Origin: an uncultured bacterium
GTDB taxonomy: Bacteria > Spirochaetota > Spirochaetia > B11-G9
Direction of reading: 5' to 3'
Length of the DNA stretch: 39,639 nucleotides
Assembly (NCBI GenBank): GCA_965371875.1
Contig: CBDVAD010000001.1
Span: 1 to 39,639, forward strand
The notes under the pieces are model-generated. The model made no database searches, was not told the origin of the DNA, and worked only from the letters and a program-made list of their open reading frames with translations. A program made the translations under genes and the position numbers. This document shows positions 2,726 through 10,143 of the stretch, in pieces (the stretch's first letter is position 1; each line of letters opens with the position of its first letter).

Positions 2726-3580
2726 CTAAACCATCGTATCCTCACCAACACTACCGGCTTTGTCCTTAATATATTTGCTGAAGGAAATCTTTGGAACTGA
2801 TGTAGGAGGTTTTGCTTTGACGGTTATCTCCTCTCCTGTTTCCGGGTGCCTGATTATCCGTGCTTTCTGGGCCTCTTTCTTTTTTAATGAAAGACGCCCA
2901 ATTCTGCCAAGAGGAACACTCTCTCCCAGCATCATCCCTGTTTCGATGAGCAGGGTGTAATCATCCAGAATCTCTTTAGCCAGAGCCCCTGTTATGTTGT
3001 ACCTCTTGGCAATGTACCTGGTCATGGATTTGGAGGTAAATTGTTCCGGTACACTTGTTTTATCTATATGAATACTTCTGTTTATCTTCATGAAACCGTT
3101 GGTAAGAAAAATTGTCCCTTCCCTTATTCGCTCTTTCTGGTTTGCTGTATCAACAGAGGCATCGCATACGGCAATCATATAGGCTGCTGAAGTCTGTTTC
3201 AGTTGACCTGCAGAGAATCTGACAGCCTCGCCAATACGAACGCCTCCTGCAAGATCTGTATCAACAATTGATATCGTTTTAGGAACATCACTTCTCAGGT
3301 GTATACTTGCGTACTCAACTTCCCTTGCTTCCTCTTTAGGCCCGATGCTGACAATAGAACCTGAATAGGTCATAATAATCATCCCTCTTTGATCACCTGC
3401 CTCAATACCATCGACAATATTCATGTTTAAAGTTCTGGTCTGCTGTTTAAAAAGATTACATTTTCTATCCCATATATCTGCCAGTAGATTACGGAATTCT
3501 TTATTGTCAGGCATTTCTGAAGATCTGATAAGCGATTCCATATGAGATTGAATTCTTTGTGGCAATTCATTAAATGTCAT
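2726..3580 (-). CDS. Fusion protein: uncharacterised ~170-aa N-terminal domain + C-terminal HU/IHF-type DNA-binding domain
   Basis: 284-aa ORF. The C-terminus 'VPLGRIGRLSLKKKEAQKARIIRHPETGEEITVKAKPPTSVPKISFSKYIKD' fits the HU/IHF arm (R-x-G-R-N-P-x-T-G-E-type) pattern. The N-terminal domain is paralogous to the product of 3743-4273. Confidence 0.8.
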   Translation of the reverse strand: MTFNELPQRIQSHMESLIRSSEMPDNKEFRNLLADIWDRKCNLFKQQTRTLNMNIVDGIEAGDQRGMIIMTYSGSIVSIGPKEEAREVEYASIHLRSDVPKTISIVDTDLAGGVRIGEAVRFSAGQLKQTSAAYMIAVCDASVDTANQKERIREGTIFLTNGFMKINRSIHIDKTSVPEQFTSKSMTRYIAKRYNITGALAKEILDDYTLLIETGMMLGESVPLGRIGRLSLKKKEAQKARIIRHPETGEEITVKAKPPTSVPKISFSKYIKDKAGSVGEDTMV

Positions 3581-3742
3581 GGTTTTATCCCCCCTGTTAT
3601 CAGATGCTTAATAGCTCTGAATTATTTGCATATTTATAGTATATCACAAATATTATCAAATAATACCGAAAAAAATGGTTATTTTTGGAAAAGTGCATTA
3701 TATTCCAATGTATTGAAGAGAATTACCATTGGAGGTATGAAA
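3581..3742. promoter_or_regulatory. Divergent intergenic region, presumed bidirectional promoter/operator
   Basis: 162-bp AT-rich spacer between divergent paralogues. It contains the inverted repeat TATTAT-caa-ATAATA at 3651-3665. GGAGG at 3731-3735 precedes ATG 3743. No promoter hexamers could be assigned confidently. Confidence 0.3.
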
Positions 3743-4273
3743 ATGGAAGAATATTTTGCAAAGGTATCAGAAGAGGTACAGAATCACTTGAAACAGCTTG
3801 TCGGTACAGTTAATCTGTCCGAAGGGGAAGATGCTTTGGAGATACTGGCCAAAGGGTGGCTGGATAAGGAAGAGAGTTTTATGTCCCAGATAAATGAAAG
3901 GAATTTGGAAGAGGCCCGTGACTTTTCTGTCGAAGAGCCCAGAGGCGGACTGTTAATGACATATTCAGGTTCGCTTTTGACAATTGGACCAATAGGTGAA
4001 GATGGGCGGAAAGTGGAATATGTAAGTGTTGGTCTTAGAACGGATGTTCCTGAGAGTGCTGAAAAGGAAGGATCTGTTATTAGCTCTGATATTTCAGTAG
4101 GTGGAGTGGTTGATTTTTTAGTTGGACCTATTAAGAAGAGTTCACCGGTTTATAAAATTGCTGTAGTCAGGGATGAGATGCCCATTGAAGAGGAAGAAGA
4201 ACTTCTTTCGGATGTCACTCAGATTTTAATGGATGAATTTGTTGAAGTTAACAAGACTTTGATAATCGACTAA
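3743..4273 (+). CDS. Uncharacterised protein, stand-alone paralogue of the N-terminal domain of the HU-fusion protein; first gene of the kinase/FHA operon
   Basis: Track ORF 3542-4273 is trimmed to the ATG (MEEYFAKV...) that lies 7 nt after GGAGG. It shares 'LMTYSGSLLTIGP..GRKVEYVSVGLRTDVP' with 'IMTYSGSIVSIGP..AREVEYASIHLRSDVP' of the divergent gene. Confidence 0.75.
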   Translation: MEEYFAKVSEEVQNHLKQLVGTVNLSEGEDALEILAKGWLDKEESFMSQINERNLEEARDFSVEEPRGGLLMTYSGSLLTIGPIGEDGRKVEYVSVGLRTDVPESAEKEGSVISSDISVGGVVDFLVGPIKKSSPVYKIAVVRDEMPIEEEEELLSDVTQILMDEFVEVNKTLIID

Positions 4274-4274
4274 A

Positions 4275-5282
4275 ATGTTTGTAAGCAGCCCCTTTTACAG
4301 AATTAAAGCTATTACGGAAAGAAGGAAAGTACCTGTTCCCGGGGATCTTAACGAGTCCCTGGAACGGGCCTCCTATGCCCTGGATAATGAGAATATGGAT
4401 ATTCGTCCCCGGGGAAGTGACGGCGCGCCAGGCGGTCTTATTCTTTTAGGAGCCCTTCCAACAATAATTGTTCCGGATCTTCATGCCCGTATTGGATATC
4501 TTAAGACACTTCTTGCCTGGAACCCTCCTGGTGAAAATTATACTGTCTATCAGGGGCTATCTTTAGGTAAGCTGCAGGTTGTCTGTGTTGGTGATGGCTT
4601 TCATGGCGAGGCAAGGGCAATTCGGCGTTGGCAAACAGCTTATGAAGAATTCTCCCAGGACTTTAAAAAGCATAAGGCCATGGATGAGGAGATGAGGGAA
4701 AGTATAGGTGTTATGATGATTGTCATGGAACTTAAATCAGCCTTTCCTGAGTATTTCCATTTTTTAAAAGGGAATCATGAGAATATTGCAAATGAGAATT
4801 CACTGGATAATAGATCTTTTATGAAATTTGTCTATGAAGGAGCTATGGTAACATCCTGGTTTCGTAAATACATGGGAGAGGAAACTTTTCTAAAATACTA
4901 TGAGTTTGAAAAAAAGCTGCCTGTATTTGCTGTAGGAAATCGTTTCTGTGTAACCCATTCCGAACCGAGAAAGCATTACTGGAAGCATGAACTGATAGAA
5001 GCTATGATTAACCGTAAAATAGTATTCGACCTGACCTGGACTGCAAATGAAGAGGCGGAAACAAACAGTGTTAATGGATACCTGGAGGAATACTTTCCAG
5101 GGGATCTTCATGCCAGAATGTTTGGTGGTCACAGACCGGTAGCAGGCTGTTTTAATACCCGGGCCGGGGGAAAATATTTGCAGATTCATAATCCCGGCAG
5201 GTACATAGCGGCGTACATCCGTGATATGGCGGATTTTTCCACAGAAAGAGATATTTTGATTCTACCCGAAAAGGGGGCATAG
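4275..5282 (+). CDS. Calcineurin-like metallophosphoesterase (probable Ser/Thr protein phosphatase)
   Basis: The ordered metallophosphoesterase motifs are all present: PDLHA (D-x-H), VGDGFHGE (GD), KGNHEN (GNHE), VTHSEP (H), GGHRP (GH). It starts 1 nt after the upstream stop and ends 4 nt before the kinase gene. Confidence 0.8.
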   Translation: MFVSSPFYRIKAITERRKVPVPGDLNESLERASYALDNENMDIRPRGSDGAPGGLILLGALPTIIVPDLHARIGYLKTLLAWNPPGENYTVYQGLSLGKLQVVCVGDGFHGEARAIRRWQTAYEEFSQDFKKHKAMDEEMRESIGVMMIVMELKSAFPEYFHFLKGNHENIANENSLDNRSFMKFVYEGAMVTSWFRKYMGEETFLKYYEFEKKLPVFAVGNRFCVTHSEPRKHYWKHELIEAMINRKIVFDLTWTANEEAETNSVNGYLEEYFPGDLHARMFGGHRPVAGCFNTRAGGKYLQIHNPGRYIAAYIRDMADFSTERDILILPEKGA

Positions 5283-5286
5283 CCAG

Positions 5287-6924
5287 ATGGCAAAATTACC
5301 GGAAAGTATAGGTAAGTATAAAGTTGAGGCTCTTGTTGCGAAGGGGGGCATGGGCGCAGTCTATAAGGCTATCCATCCAACATTGCACAGGCCTGTAATA
5401 ATAAAAAAGCTGACTCTTAGAGGACGGAAGGATATAAATGAACGTTTTAAAAGGGAAGCACGTATTCTTATGGATTTTCGGCATGATGGTGTCGTGGATA
5501 TGTATGATCACTTTAAATTGGGATCATCGTATTATATTGTTCTTGAGTTTGTAGATGGATCATCACTGGAAGATGTTATAAAAAAGCAGCGGTATCTGGA
5601 CAATGGTACAGCAGCTTATATTCTCTATTATACTGCCATAGCACTGCACTATGCTCATGAAAAAAAAGTTGTTCACAGAGATATAAAACCAGCTAACCTC
5701 CTGTTATCAAAGGCAGGGGAGATTAAACTTGTTGATTTCGGTATTGCCGTTTCTGATGAAGATGCTGATGAAGGACTCACCAGGGATGGAATGACTCTGG
5801 GAACGCCCAGCTACATGGCACCGGAACAGTTCCAAAATACTAAGAATGTTGACAGACGGGCTGATATCTATTCTCTGGGTGTATTGGCATATGAGATGCT
5901 GACAGGGAAGAAACCTTTCCCTGGAGGGTTCAGCTCCGAACTTATGAACAGTATCCAGAAAGGTAAATATCCAAATCCGCGAAAATTCAATCCTGGCATT
6001 CATTCTGTTCTTCTCCGTTTTATCAGAAAATCAATGAAGCCGAATACAGATCGTCGTTATAAAAGCCTGGTCCCGGTAATCGAAGAACTTGAACGATTTC
6101 TTAAGGGCTATGAAAAAGAAGTACTTACCAGTATAGTCGCCGATCTGGCGACAGGGAAGGAACCGGAGAAACCGAAATACAAGATAAAAAGAGGTTCTTT
6201 TATAAAAAATTTGATACTGTCTGTTGTTGTAATCGCAATATCTCTGATCGGGATTTTTGACTATCTTACTGGTTATCACAATGTGATATTTCATGGAGAT
6301 TCATATGGGTCTGTAATTTTCCTTGCCAGAACTCCGGTCGGTTTCCAGCCATGGTATAAGATATTTATAAAAGCCGATATTTTTCAGGATGATGATAATC
6401 TTATACCGAATGTTCCTGATAAACGGATTATTTTTATAAAAGTAAGGGAAGATAGAGGGGATGGTTCATATCTGTTTCAGTCACTTCCGGTTTATCTGAC
6501 CGAGGGCCTGTACAGGGCAAAGGTTGAGATTGAAGATGAACTTACCTGGCATTCCTTTATAGTTCTATCCAGACAGCAGCAGAAACAGGATTCACAAACA
6601 AGCAAAGGTAAGATTGTTGTCTCCGGCGAATTTCAGGAGACACCTTCTTTTCTTTCTACTAAAATAGAAGTTTCAGATATACTAACAGGAGATCTTATAG
6701 AGAAAGGAATCACTGTTTCTATATTACACAAAGGGATATGGATAGATTTGGAAGAGTCAGAATCTCTGTTTACTGGTGGAATCCACAAGTTTCGAATTCG
6801 GCATGAGGATTATAATACAAAGATTTTTTCTCTTCTGATCAGAGAAAATCAGGATACTCTTATTATAAAAGCAGGTCTTGTTCCACTCTCAGGAATCGAC
6901 AGCCTGGAACCTGGCTCGGAGTGA
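5287..6924 (+). CDS. Hanks-type Ser/Thr protein kinase with one TM helix and a ~220-aa extracytoplasmic C-terminal region
   Basis: Kinase motifs GKGGMGAVYKA (P-loop), VIIKK, HRDIKPANLL, DFGIA and GTPSYMAPEQ. TM segment ILSVVVIAISLIGIF. Confidence 0.95.
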   Translation: MAKLPESIGKYKVEALVAKGGMGAVYKAIHPTLHRPVIIKKLTLRGRKDINERFKREARILMDFRHDGVVDMYDHFKLGSSYYIVLEFVDGSSLEDVIKKQRYLDNGTAAYILYYTAIALHYAHEKKVVHRDIKPANLLLSKAGEIKLVDFGIAVSDEDADEGLTRDGMTLGTPSYMAPEQFQNTKNVDRRADIYSLGVLAYEMLTGKKPFPGGFSSELMNSIQKGKYPNPRKFNPGIHSVLLRFIRKSMKPNTDRRYKSLVPVIEELERFLKGYEKEVLTSIVADLATGKEPEKPKYKIKRGSFIKNLILSVVVIAISLIGIFDYLTGYHNVIFHGDSYGSVIFLARTPVGFQPWYKIFIKADIFQDDDNLIPNVPDKRIIFIKVREDRGDGSYLFQSLPVYLTEGLYRAKVEIEDELTWHSFIVLSRQQQKQDSQTSKGKIVVSGEFQETPSFLSTKIEVSDILTGDLIEKGITVSILHKGIWIDLEESESLFTGGIHKFRIRHEDYNTKIFSLLIRENQDTLIIKAGLVPLSGIDSLEPGSE

Positions 6925-6934
6925 AGGAGATAAT

Positions 6935-7819
6935 ATGACAGTATTTTACAGAAAGATTTTTATGACATTGATAGGTTTAATAGCAGGTATGGCGAGTTGG
7001 GGGGTAATTGAAATTCTTCTTTCTTATAGTTATTTGATCAGTCGCCACCTTGTTTGGAATAGTCTTGCCGGGGCTGCAATGGGTCTGATTTTCGGTTTTT
7101 TCTTCGGCAGTGCAGAGGGGATAATGTTTTCAGATATAAAGAGGTCAATCAGAGGTGGTCTTACAGGGGCAGGCTTAGGACTGGCCGGTGGCATAGGAGC
7201 TGTAGTTCTGGCGCAGGGGCTTCTATACTGGATTGGGAATACCGAGCTGCTTGCATCCTCTTTTTCAGATTCATTTATCGCCCCTCTATCCAGAGCTTTG
7301 GGCTGGGGTCTTCTTGGTATGATTATAGGCGCTGTCGATGGTATTAGACGTGGTTCCGGGAAGCGGATTGGTATCGGTATTTCAGGAGGTCTTATTGGCG
7401 GTTTGTTTGGAGGATTATTACTGGAATTTCTTACAGGAGTATGGACAAACAGTTATGCGGCAAGAGGAATTGGTATTGTAGTTCTTGGTGTCGGGATTGG
7501 TCTCTTTTTTACTATCTTTGAGTATTCAAGGGCCTACGGCATTATCAGGATTCTTACAGGGACCCTGCGTGGTAAAGAGTATCTCCTTATTACAAAGAAA
7601 ACAAAAGTCGGCTCATCCATGGGCTCGGATATATCTCTTGGAAATTACACAGGAGTTGTAAAGAACCATGCAGTTTTAACTGCCAATAGGGATGGAGTTA
7701 TTATTAAAGATAATAAAGGGGCTGTTCTTGTAAACGATCAACCGGTAGGGGAGCAGGAATTAAAATATGAAGATGTTATCCAGATAGGAGATGCCAAACT
7801 TTTTTATCTGCCGAAATAA
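6935..7819 (+). CDS. Gly-rich polytopic membrane protein with C-terminal FHA domain
   Basis: The start is moved to the ATG after GGAGA (track ORF starts at 6878, inside the kinase gene). There are several Gly-rich hydrophobic segments. The C-terminus 'VGSSMGSDISLGN...NHAVLTANRDGVIIKDNKGAVLVNDQPV...IQIGDAKLFY' is FHA-like. Confidence 0.85.
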   Translation: MTVFYRKIFMTLIGLIAGMASWGVIEILLSYSYLISRHLVWNSLAGAAMGLIFGFFFGSAEGIMFSDIKRSIRGGLTGAGLGLAGGIGAVVLAQGLLYWIGNTELLASSFSDSFIAPLSRALGWGLLGMIIGAVDGIRRGSGKRIGIGISGGLIGGLFGGLLLEFLTGVWTNSYAARGIGIVVLGVGIGLFFTIFEYSRAYGIIRILTGTLRGKEYLLITKKTKVGSSMGSDISLGNYTGVVKNHAVLTANRDGVIIKDNKGAVLVNDQPVGEQELKYEDVIQIGDAKLFYLPK

Positions 7820-7836
7820 GTTTGATAGTAGATAAA

Positions 7837-7889
7837 ATGGGCGACACGAAGTGTCGGGGCTGGTCACAACTTCGTTGCTGCTCGCCCAT
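7837..7889. other. Intra-operon structured element (Y-shaped hairpin)
   Basis: An outer stem pairs atgggcga (7837-7844) with tcgcccat (7882-7889). It encloses cgacac-gaag-gtgtcg and caac-ttcg-ttg hairpins. The element is GC-rich relative to its surroundings and lies between the stop at 7819 and the start at 7932. Confidence 0.4.
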
Positions 7890-7931
7890 GCAACCTGGGA
7901 ACCCATTCTTAGTCGTAAGGGAGGATTTGAA

Positions 7932-9335
7932 ATGAATAATAACCTATTATTAAAAGCAGTAATAAATGCTGCAATATTGGGACTTATGGTTATGCCAGCC
8001 ATTATTTCAGCTCAAAATATTACAATTACACAGCTTGATTCAAGAGAACTTCTTACATCTTCCAGGATTGACTGTTATTTGAGTATTACGGACAATCAGG
8101 GAGAACCTTTGGAAGATGTTAAGACTGATTTAATCAGGATGAAACATGAAACAGAAGAAGGTATGGATACTGTGGAAATTCTGGATATCCAAAGAAATAA
8201 TTCAGCAGAAGGGGAGATCACATTTCTTTTAGTACTGGATAATTCGGGAAGTATGTATGAACCAGTTGGAGATGGAATGGATGGGGATCGAATGGATCAT
8301 GCAATAAGAGCTGTTAAAGAGTTTCTTGGCAGTCTTGATAAACAGAATACCAGAGTTGGTTTGGCTGTTTTTAATACAAAATACATATTACTTGTTGAAC
8401 CTGACAAGAATATAAAAGCCATAGAAGAGGCTCTTGAAAGAATAGAAAAACCTGACAGTAAGAATGCGTATACCGAACTGTTCTACTCCATTAGTCAGGC
8501 TGCGATGGATATGGCACGATATCGCGGACGAAAAGCAATAGTTCTTCTTTCGGATGGAGAAAACTACCCATACTTCACTATGTCCGGAAACCTTCACCCG
8601 GATTTGGGAGAAAATCTCTATCTTCCTGACGATGGATTGGAACCTTTAAAACGGGAAGGAGTGACCCTTTATGGTATTAATTTTTCAACCGAGAAAGATA
8701 AGTCTCTGGCATCAATCAGTATTGAATCCGGCGGAACAATGTATGACGCAATCACAGATGACGAGTTGTCAGGAGTCTATGGCCGGATTAAAAACCGGAT
8801 AGAAAAGGAATACAGGGTTACTGTCAGAGCTCCTCTTGTTTTCCTCGGATCACCAAAAATCAGCGCTGAATATAAAGCTTCCGATGATACAAAAAGCTAT
8901 TATGCCAGGCCCCTTATGGGGACTCCGGAAAGAGACTACCTCTTTCTGTCACTGATGATACTGCTGCTCTCTTTCGTAATATGGGTTATTTTAATGCTGA
9001 TCCGCTTTGAAAAAACTGCAGACCATGCCGAGCTTTCAATGCTGCCTATGGGAAGGGGTAAACCTTTACAAAGAACCATAGCTCTGACATCTCAAATGAC
9101 GGTTATTGGCGGTTCAGCCCAGGCAGATTTTACTGTAGCAGGAATCCCGAGTCTGAAGGAATCTCATGCTACTATTGTGCAGGATGAAAAAGCAGGCACA
9201 TTTACACTGGTTTCCGACGAGGAAGTACGGGTCAATAACAGGATGACTAAAAACCGAAAACTAAATCCTGGTGATGTTATAAATATAGAGGGAGCAACAA
9301 TTGTTTTTGATGCACCTGAAAACAGTAAACAGTAA
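7932..9335 (+). CDS. Secreted/membrane-anchored vWA domain protein with TM helix and C-terminal cytoplasmic FHA domain
   Basis: The start is taken at MNNNLLLKAV... (signal-like), preceded by GGGAGG. MIDAS motif 'LLVLDNSGSM'. TM segment LFLSLMILLLSFVIWVILMLI. The C-terminus 'MTVIGGSAQADFTV...SHATIVQDEKAGTFTLVSDEEVRVNN' is FHA-like. Confidence 0.9.
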   Translation: MNNNLLLKAVINAAILGLMVMPAIISAQNITITQLDSRELLTSSRIDCYLSITDNQGEPLEDVKTDLIRMKHETEEGMDTVEILDIQRNNSAEGEITFLLVLDNSGSMYEPVGDGMDGDRMDHAIRAVKEFLGSLDKQNTRVGLAVFNTKYILLVEPDKNIKAIEEALERIEKPDSKNAYTELFYSISQAAMDMARYRGRKAIVLLSDGENYPYFTMSGNLHPDLGENLYLPDDGLEPLKREGVTLYGINFSTEKDKSLASISIESGGTMYDAITDDELSGVYGRIKNRIEKEYRVTVRAPLVFLGSPKISAEYKASDDTKSYYARPLMGTPERDYLFLSLMILLLSFVIWVILMLIRFEKTADHAELSMLPMGRGKPLQRTIALTSQMTVIGGSAQADFTVAGIPSLKESHATIVQDEKAGTFTLVSDEEVRVNNRMTKNRKLNPGDVINIEGATIVFDAPENSKQ

Positions 9336-9386
9336 ACAGTTATCAGTAAACAGAATTTGCTAACTGAAAAAGGGGATTGGTGAAGG

Positions 9387-9725
9387 ATGGACGAGACAAT
9401 TTACATGTCCAGTAATGTTGGCAAGAGACTCGAAAAGGTGAAAAAGGCGGAACACCATTTTCTTGTGTTTAACGGGAAGAAGATTGCTCTTGTCAGCAAA
9501 ATTATAATCGGTCGTTCCCGGTCCTGCGATGTTGTATTAAACGACGCTCTTGTTTCCCGGAAACACGCTGTTATCCAGAAGATTAAGGATGAATATTTTA
9601 TTAAGGATTTAAACAGCAAAAACGGGACCTATGTAAATAAGAAGAAAGTCCCTGATAGGCAATATATCAGGCTGGAAAAAGCGGATTCCATTAAGATTGG
9701 GAAAAACACCATACAACTGCAGTAA
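9387..9725 (+). CDS. Small stand-alone FHA domain protein
   Basis: 'IIIGRSRSCDVVLNDALVSRKHAVIQKIKDEYFIKDLNSKNGTYVNKKKV' is a canonical FHA core (G-R...S-R-x-H...N-G). Confidence 0.9.
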   Translation: MDETIYMSSNVGKRLEKVKKAEHHFLVFNGKKIALVSKIIIGRSRSCDVVLNDALVSRKHAVIQKIKDEYFIKDLNSKNGTYVNKKKVPDRQYIRLEKADSIKIGKNTIQLQ

Positions 9726-9807
9726 GCAGGTTTATGATTTGATTTCCCTTTTCCTGATTGCATAATAAGTAATAAATTTATAGAGTGGGACAATCAGGAG
9801 TGGTTTA

Positions 9808-10143
9808 GTGAATATTCAGATAATCGGAACAAAAAAAAGTAATAATACAAAAAAAGCTATTAGGTTTTTTAAGGAAAGAAATATAAAATTCCACTTTATG
9901 GATTTAAACGAGCGGGAAATTTCAGAGGGAGAGCTTTCAAATATTATGAATCGGATCTCACCTGAAGATTTAATCGATACTGAAAGCGCTGCATATAAAA
10001 AACGGGGATTTGCATATATGGAATATGACCCTGCAGAGGAAATTCTTGAGGATAACAATCTTATGCGAACCCCTGTAGTAAGAAATGGAAAAGAAGTTAC
10101 AGTTGGTTATGCAATTGAAGTCTGGAAACAGTGGATAATATAA
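9808..10143 (+). CDS. ArsC/Spx/YffB-family thioredoxin-fold protein, cysteine-free variant
   Basis: GTG start after CAGGAG. 'IQIIGTKKSNNTKKAIRFFKERNIKFHFMDL' aligns with the family N-terminus, but the usual Cys positions are replaced and the whole protein has no Cys. Confidence 0.65.
   Translation: MNIQIIGTKKSNNTKKAIRFFKERNIKFHFMDLNEREISEGELSNIMNRISPEDLIDTESAAYKKRGFAYMEYDPAEEILEDNNLMRTPVVRNGKEVTVGYAIEVWKQWII

Follow-up and report, generated by a model that had tools for sequence, protein, structure and literature searches.

The window analysed here, a stretch of 39,639 nucleotides (nt) from an uncultured spirochaete of the lineage B11-G9 (contig CBDVAD010000001.1, assembly GCA_965371875.1), contains six consecutive open reading frames (ORFs) on the + strand at 3743–9725, here called g1 to g6, and a seventh gene, g0 (2726–3580), in divergent orientation. 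Based on sequence and structural models we read g1–g6 as a spirochaete-specific module for Ser/Thr phospho-signalling across the membrane, a reading to which we give a probability of about 65%. It would comprise a receptor-type Hanks kinase (g3), a putative PP1-like phosphatase (g2), two membrane proteins with FHA-fold domains (g4 and g5), a small soluble FHA protein (g6) and the g1 protein, whose fold could not be assigned. A literature search found no description of the module, and the operon is apparently a variant, not described before, of a well-known type of bacterial kinase signalling. Its main interest lies in the pairing of a bacterial Hanks kinase with a PP1-like enzyme and in the orphan g1 domain, which is tied to the DNA-binding protein HU through g0.

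The g2 protein carries the complete series of two-metal motifs of the calcineurin-like superfamily (DxH / GD / GNH[DE] / H / GH). The residues D68xH70, G106D107, G166N167H168E169, H228 and G285H286 were invariant across 40 homologues with 44–90% identity, which also share an N-terminal motif of the family's own, R44-P45...P52-G53-G54. When the AlphaFold2 model of g2, built from the homologue alignment (pLDDT 93.6, pTM 0.93), was compared with the PDB by Foldseek, all top 50 neighbours were Ser/Thr phosphatases of the PPP family (PP5, PP1, PP2A, PPZ1 and RdgC; E = 2.5e-11 to 9e-10, TM-scores 0.57–0.72). The sequence profile of the g2 family likewise matched PPPs only; the best match was PP1 (E = 2.9e-4), in an alignment that covers the PPP-typical helix and LxGNHE. 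In a second, weak stretch GHR of g2 was placed against 'AHQ', and QIHNP near 'SAPNY' of the matched PP1-like chain. The initial annotation had proposed a calcineurin-like enzyme instead of a PP2C in the phosphatase slot of the operon, and the intact motif series as well as the fold and profile matches agree with this. As bacterial Hanks kinases almost invariably have a PPM/PP2C enzyme from the same operon as their cognate phosphatase (PMC6213207), the central point of that annotation, an unusual phosphatase, holds.

With PP1, PP2A and PP5 and with bacterial PPPs such as E. coli PrpA and M. xanthus Pph2, g2 has the two-metal core, the helix-LxGNHE element and the closest predicted fold in common, but its identity to them is only about 12–14%. 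Apart from GNHE, neither the classical nor the bacterial PPP signature is present, and we therefore describe g2 as PPP-like in its modelled fold and predicted active-site metals, yet as a divergent, separate family. We found no known bacterial PPP that shares an operon with a Hanks kinase as its partner. Since the standard models score at or below threshold, phosphatase surveys of genomes would tend to miss g2, even though some orthologues clear the Metallophos cut-off (for example 26.2 bits at locus L093). One genome was observed to hold a solitary second g2 paralogue (L017, 8395–9972) in addition to the full operon (L089); it is preceded by a bacterial SH3 protein, and a caspase-like (Peptidase_C14) gene is nearby.

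The conservation of the operon was followed in two surveys. In the first, with one genome per GTDB species, 457 g2 relatives were obtained and the best 80 loci inspected, almost all of which were labelled spirochaete. The g1 gene lay before g2 in 72 of 76 loci, the kinase gene followed g2 in 57 of 64, and g1-g2-g3-g4-g5 were colinear in at least 42 of the 50 species loci with sufficient flank; the position of g6 varied, being downstream, upstream or immediately before g2. The second survey covered 301 evenly sampled Spirochaetota genomes, of which 62, from 37 of 121 genera, have g2. All 62 genomes have a Hanks kinase, and in 57 of them a Pkinase match starts 29–416 nt 3' of g2 on the same strand. 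This arrangement is far beyond chance, and the operon is conserved in many free-living spirochaetes, which bears out the co-conservation of the gene neighbourhood. Four loci (L088, L090, L091 and L092) hold the variant g1-g3-g4-g5, in which the phosphatase gene is missing.

A second gene context was found in the family that we label f2. In the two f2 genomes examined, a canonical FHA gene is followed by g2 and then by the kinase gene, with 1-nt or overlapping junctions, and g1, g4 and g5 are missing from this triad locus. Because g2 is kept next to the kinase also in this context, the triad supports the coupling of the two. The window genome (a 3.95-Mb assembly, 80% complete) has g3 as its sole Pkinase match and no match to PF00481 or PF13672, while five PPMs of the SpoIIE type are present. 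PP2C_2 was also not found in eight of nine other operon-bearing genomes, Breznakiella homolactica among them. A whole bacterial lineage apparently uses a divergent PP1-like enzyme where PP2C is the usual partner of Hanks kinases.

The g3 protein gave a Pfam Pkinase match with E = 2.4e-51 and, as judged from its residues, carries everything required for catalysis in an active Hanks kinase. Across 61 orthologues K40, HRDIKPxN, DFG and APE are retained, as are the activation-loop residues T165, T170 and T173. Hydropathy predicts a cytoplasmic kinase domain (residues 1–280), a transmembrane segment at about 307–327 and a beta-rich ectodomain of 218 amino acids (aa); a transmembrane segment and an ectodomain were present in all g3 orthologues examined. 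The kinase ectodomains at loci L001–L082 fall into two length classes of 201–220 and 291–356 aa, which suggests that one beta-rich repeat was gained or lost. The ectodomain profile matched nothing in the PDB under E = 0.45 and nothing significant in Pfam, where a few orthologues gave weak, scattered matches to the beta-sandwich families CarboxypepD_reg, PEGA or PKD.

The initial annotation had counted three FHA readers in the operon, which proved too many. The pocket residues for phosphothreonine were counted in a joint alignment of 16 g6, 30 g5 and 30 g4 orthologues. The Arg of GR, the Ser of SxxH and the Asn of NG(T) were kept in all 16 g6 proteins. In the FHA-fold tail of g5 the canonical Arg was found in none of the 30 sequences, and Ser and Asn in 2 of 30 each; in g4 the Arg was likewise absent from all 30, and the canonical Ser and Asn were not among the listed residues. 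As these contacts are intact in g6 and degenerate in g4 and g5, g6 is the only predicted true phosphothreonine reader in the operon. Its FHA match (E = 8.6e-24) is also the sole Pfam FHA match in the window genome.

The Pfam match of g4 was not to canonical FHA but to the FHA-fold family Yop-YscD_cpl (PF16697, E = 8.5e-11). While the g5 protein of the window misses Pfam FHA, 14 of 30 g5 orthologues match it, and the g5 family profile matched the FHA domain of M. tuberculosis FhaA in the PDB (E = 6.8e-6), in an alignment where GG stands in place of GR, KESH in place of SRRH, and NG is missing. The tails of g4 and g5 are, by these residues, FHA-fold domains with degenerate phosphothreonine pockets that resemble the YscD-type fold. 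FHA domains of the YscD type are thought to act independently of phosphate. Like the cytoplasmic FHA-fold domains of YscD and PrgH in type III secretion, whose family g4 matches, g4 and g5 are without the Arg, Ser and Asn that contact phosphothreonine; however, their membrane parts are unrelated to those proteins, and secretion-system genes are missing at the locus.

According to hydropathy and positive-inside charges, g4 has about six glycine-zipper-rich transmembrane segments and both ends inside, and its Gly pattern was invariant in 30 orthologues. The g5 protein is ordered as signal peptide, N-terminal beta region, vWA domain, transmembrane segment (340–358) and FHA-fold tail. The vWA domain gave Pfam matches with E = 1.5e-13 to 1.6e-13 (VWA_2). 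Its metal-ion-dependent adhesion site (MIDAS) is complete, with D104xS106xS108, T182 and D209 invariant or nearly so in 30 orthologues. In the PDB the g5 profile matched 4rck (2.6e-17) and BatB (1.1e-8). These features fit a Bat-like vWA domain in the periplasm, with the FHA-like tails of g4 and g5 in the cytoplasm; the predicted topology thus agrees with the sidedness that had been suggested for these proteins in the initial annotation.

For g1 no match was obtained in Pfam, NCBIfam or PADLOC, and all its relatives are named 'hypothetical protein' in the databases. The AlphaFold2 model (pLDDT 88.4, pTM 0.83) predicts two N-terminal helices, seven beta strands and a long C-terminal helix. The best Foldseek hits of this model had E = 0.045 in the PDB and 0.026 in BFVD, a viral library, with TM-scores below 0.3. 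The hairpin turn T73-x-S75-G76-S77 was invariant in 50 orthologues. The g0 protein is a paralogue of g1 (29% identity over 172 aa, E = 2e-28) that carries in addition a Bac_DNA_binding domain (residues 182–274, E = 1.6e-11). The S-G-S turn is invariant in both proteins, and in 36 g0 orthologues the SGS loop was conserved together with the HU arm (KAR..P.TGE). A g0 gene accompanies the operon at 19 of 37 wide loci, mostly divergently upstream or right after g5.

Among 1.84 billion protein representatives the g1 domain family forms 229 clusters at 50% identity, and nearly all members are about 176 aa (g1 type) or about 280–305 aa (g0 type) long. Rare divergent g1-like domains occur in two longer database proteins without Pfam matches, P0380 and P0387; P0380 is apparently from a high-G+C organism, and the domain may therefore not be strictly confined to spirochaetes. 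In a further database protein, P0305 (701 aa), a g5-like arrangement of signal peptide, vWA domain and transmembrane segment is followed by a g1-like domain (404–576) in place of the FHA-fold tail. This single lead could be a Rosetta-stone fusion connecting g5 with the g1 domain, or else an artefact of gene calling.

The occurrence of the g1 domain follows that of g4 and g5 and not that of g2. Operons of the type g1-g3-g4-g5, without g2, contain it, and it was not found in any of the 11 g2-carrying f2 genomes, two of which were confirmed to hold the triad. The idea that g1 is a fixed regulatory subunit of g2, which came from the 1-nt junction of the two genes, is weakened, as family f2 has g2 without g1 and some operons have g1 without g2. 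A tentative proposal, which we consider possible though rather doubtful, is that the g1 domain is an unrecognised phospho-switch or docking domain. Its T-x-S-G-S turn would be phosphorylated or would act as a gate at the cytoplasmic face of g4 and g5, g0 would serve as a one-step 'response regulator' that alters DNA bending or nucleoid binding upon an envelope signal, and g2 would be the dedicated reset enzyme. The free and the HU-fused forms of the family offer a testable path from Ser/Thr phosphorylation to DNA.

Taken as a signalling module, the operon might work as follows. The ectodomain of g3 would sense a cue from the envelope or periplasm, perhaps together with the MIDAS-bearing vWA domain of g5, and the kinase would autophosphorylate on T165, T170 and T173. 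The g6 protein would dock on the resulting phosphothreonines, and g2 would strip the phosphates and reset the system, the role that PP2C has beside other bacterial Hanks kinases. The g4 and g5 proteins would form membrane scaffolds whose FHA-fold tails make phosphate-independent contacts, comparable to YscD-type domains. The likely target or adaptor would be g1, and g0, its HU-fused paralogue, would relay the signal to DNA.

Several points weigh against the module as proposed. Kinase and phosphatase activity and co-transcription are predictions from sequence, models and gene order, phosphorylation of g1 or g0 is a proposal from sequence, and the topologies of g3, g4 and g5 were derived solely from hydropathy and charge. 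With the FHA domains of g4 and g5 degenerate, their docking logic is guesswork. As the genome is 80% complete, the combination of a sole kinase and no PP2C is provisional for the window organism. The g2 protein of the window reaches 19.2 bits with Pfam Metallophos (PF00149), under the gathering cut-off of 21.5. It also departs from the PPP sequence hallmarks: of the classical PPP signature GDxHG / GDxxDRG / GNHE (PMC2887360) only GNHE is intact, the other two reading PDLHA(R) and GDGFH[S/G/A]E without the phosphate-binding DRG, and the bacterial PPP motif (I/L/V)D(S/T)G (PMC2887360; IDSG) is not in g2, where the equivalent region is QIHNP. In addition, the genes can be separated. In one spirochaete clade (L035, 8403–12671; L030, L053 and L058) g1-g2 lie apart from the kinase, which is located elsewhere with no adjoining g4 or g5; at L035 the genes after g1-g2 encode a DUF3276 protein and a two-component pair (HisKA_3/LuxR). 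Among the genomes with a g2-less operon, one (G005) has g2 elsewhere, and in three (G035, G123 and G158) none was found at E < 1e-20.

Because GDxxDRG and (I/L/V)D(S/T)G are missing and the Metallophos score is sub-threshold, g2 might act on a non-protein substrate. It would then be a small-molecule or nucleotide phosphoesterase, like ApaH-type enzymes and phosphodiesterase relatives, and would be connected with the kinase by regulation or only by genome position. The genomes in which g1-g2 lie away from the kinase and the operons without g2 also speak for this, and many proteins first named PPPs proved to be phosphodiesterases (PMC2887360). Nevertheless, no nuclease or phosphodiesterase was among the top 50 structural neighbours of g2, all of them protein Ser/Thr phosphatases, and its PPP-typical helix and LxGNHE align with PP1. 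Moreover, the kinase adjoins g2 in 57 of the 62 genomes and in two operon architectures, and no PP2C-type enzyme was found in the window genome or in eight of nine operon-bearing relatives. We consider a non-protein substrate unlikely, and a protein phosphatase that resets the kinase remains our preferred reading of g2.

Alternatively, g4 and g5 could form an envelope-spanning structural or transport assembly, and the kinase, the phosphatase and g6 would merely regulate its formation, as PpkA, PppA and Fha1 do in type VI secretion. The Yop-YscD_cpl match of g4, the pockets degenerate throughout the orthologues, the invariant glycine-zipper pattern and the intact MIDAS of the periplasmic vWA domain would all suit such an assembly, and the absence of g4 and g5 from the minimal triad shows them to be a separable module. 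On the other hand, no secretion, pilus or other machinery genes flank the operon in the window or in the Pfam gene tables of two relatives, no conserved substrate or ATPase gene is nearby, and g6 scored only 49 bits against TagH (TIGR03354, the FHA protein of type VI secretion; cut-off 120). A structural or transport assembly of this kind is in our judgement rather improbable, and signalling across the membrane is preferred.

For experiments on the proposed signalling, natural variants (the full operon, the phosphatase-less operon and the FHA-phosphatase-kinase triad) already split the system into modules. As the sole Hanks kinase and the sole Pfam FHA protein of the window genome are encoded in one operon, the system also offers a clean model for kinase-phosphatase-reader logic.

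The positions of the genes are given in Table 1. All six ORFs lie where the initial annotation had placed them, and its domain calls and gene order were borne out by Pfam and NCBIfam scans; only the starts of g4 and g5 had to be corrected. According to the orthologues g4 starts at 6935 instead of 6878, the start of the longest ORF, and g5 at an ATG at 7929 instead of a GTG at 7851. For g1 the start is backed by 75 orthologues about 176 aa long, and a GGAGG lies 7 nt upstream of its ATG. With the corrected starts the intergenic gaps from g1 to g6 are 1, 4, 10, 109 and 51 nt. In the operon region a promoter scan performed no better than on shuffled sequences, and no promoter was assigned. A terminator scan was also not above shuffles, with no + strand terminator within the operon or just past its end. 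A GC-rich stem is present in the sole long gap, between g4 and g5 (7820–7928, 109 nt); the predicted folding energy of this hairpin does not surpass that of shuffled sequence (z = 0.23).

Table 1. Genes of the predicted signalling module and their divergent neighbour, with positions in the window.
Feature	Position	Strand	Description
g0	2726..3580	-	g1-domain paralogue (residues 1-173) with predicted C-terminal HU/IHF DNA-binding domain
g0/g1 intergenic region	3581..3742	none	divergent region; may be the site of both promoters (presumed, read from sequence)
g1	3743..4273	+	176 aa; fold unassigned
g2	4275..5282	+	putative divergent PPP-like (PP1/PP5-fold) metallophosphatase
g3	5287..6924	+	predicted receptor-type Hanks Ser/Thr kinase
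g4	6935..7819	+	294 aa; about 6 predicted transmembrane segments, C-terminal degenerate FHA-fold domain
g5	7929..9335	+	468 aa; predicted signal peptide, vWA domain, one transmembrane segment, degenerate FHA-fold tail
g6	9387..9725	+	small soluble canonical FHA protein

The downstream flank of the operon includes ArsC-like and MBL genes. Just 3' of g6 an ArsC/Spx-family protein without any cysteine is encoded (9808–10143), which is therefore incapable of thiol redox switching, and a promoter-like site (9739–9766) lies between g6 and this gene.

In its layout, a receptor Hanks kinase encoded beside its presumed phosphatase and together with FHA proteins, the spirochaete operon is similar to the mycobacterial fhaA-fhaB-pstP-rodA-pbpA-pknA-pknB cluster and to the PASTA-kinase/PP2C pairs PrkC/PrpC and Stk1/Stp1 (PMC6213207). 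The g6 protein resembles FhaB/FipA, with 73 bits for NF049868, below the cut-off of that model. Unlike these systems, the spirochaete operon has no PP2C, PASTA or cell-wall synthesis gene, and its membrane FHA-fold domains are degenerate. Membership in the type VI PpkA/PppA/Fha1 (TagH) pathway was rejected on the low TagH score of g6 and a downstream flank without type VI genes, and membership in type III secretion on the absence of secretion-system genes.

The closest parts lists are those of the Sulfolobus Arn network and of the TerY-P triads (PMC10542128), together with the Deinococcus DRA0331-0334 operon, which encodes a vWA protein, a Ser/Thr kinase (STPK), an FHA protein and a PP2C (bioRxiv 10.64898/2026.01.23.701218). 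As in the spirochaetes, the TerY-P and Deinococcus operons join vWA protein, Hanks kinase and phosphatase, with a canonical FHA protein in Deinococcus, into a push-pull phosphorylation switch. Their phosphatase, however, is a PP2C and their vWA protein cytoplasmic and TerY-like, and a zinc ribbon or OB fold forms the C-terminus of the TerY-P kinase, whereas the spirochaete module would combine a PPP-like phosphatase and a receptor kinase with a periplasmic Bat-like vWA domain that is joined by a transmembrane segment to an FHA-fold tail. As a PP2C partner, the zinc ribbon or OB fold and a cytoplasmic TerY-like vWA were all missing, assignment to TerY-P was rejected; assignment to the anti-phage defence systems of PADLOC was also dropped, the generic kinase domain being the sole match. 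That the operon is a TerY-P-like conflict or anti-phage system, with vWA, kinase and phosphatase as a defence switch, is most improbable: although the three components resemble TerY-P triads, some of which are anti-phage (PMC10542128), and the kinase domain matches PADLOC kinase models, the other six proteins gave no PADLOC match, the predicted phosphatase, kinase ectodomain and vWA location differ as described, and the genes are kept in single copy and conserved order, next to housekeeping genes, in 37 of the 121 genera sampled.

The archaellum regulatory (Arn) network of S. acidocaldarius consists of the FHA protein ArnA, the vWA protein ArnB, the Hanks kinases ArnC and ArnD and the PPP phosphatase Saci-PP2A (PMC5007285). 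It shares with the spirochaete module a Hanks kinase, an FHA reader, a vWA protein and a PPP instead of a PP2C, a likeness at the domain level only, and its output reaches DNA and transcription, as we propose for the spirochaetes. The Arn network is, however, archaeal and cytoplasmic, ArnA and ArnB do not share an operon with its phosphatase and kinases, and the vWA protein ArnB is intracellular and itself a phospho-target, in contrast to the predicted periplasmic vWA domain of g5. It also has no membrane FHA-fold proteins, g1 domain or HU fusion. The spirochaete module is set apart from the Arn, TerY-P and Deinococcus systems by the type or the linkage of its phosphatase, its periplasmic vWA domain, its degenerate membrane FHA-fold proteins and the pair of g1 and its HU-fused paralogue.

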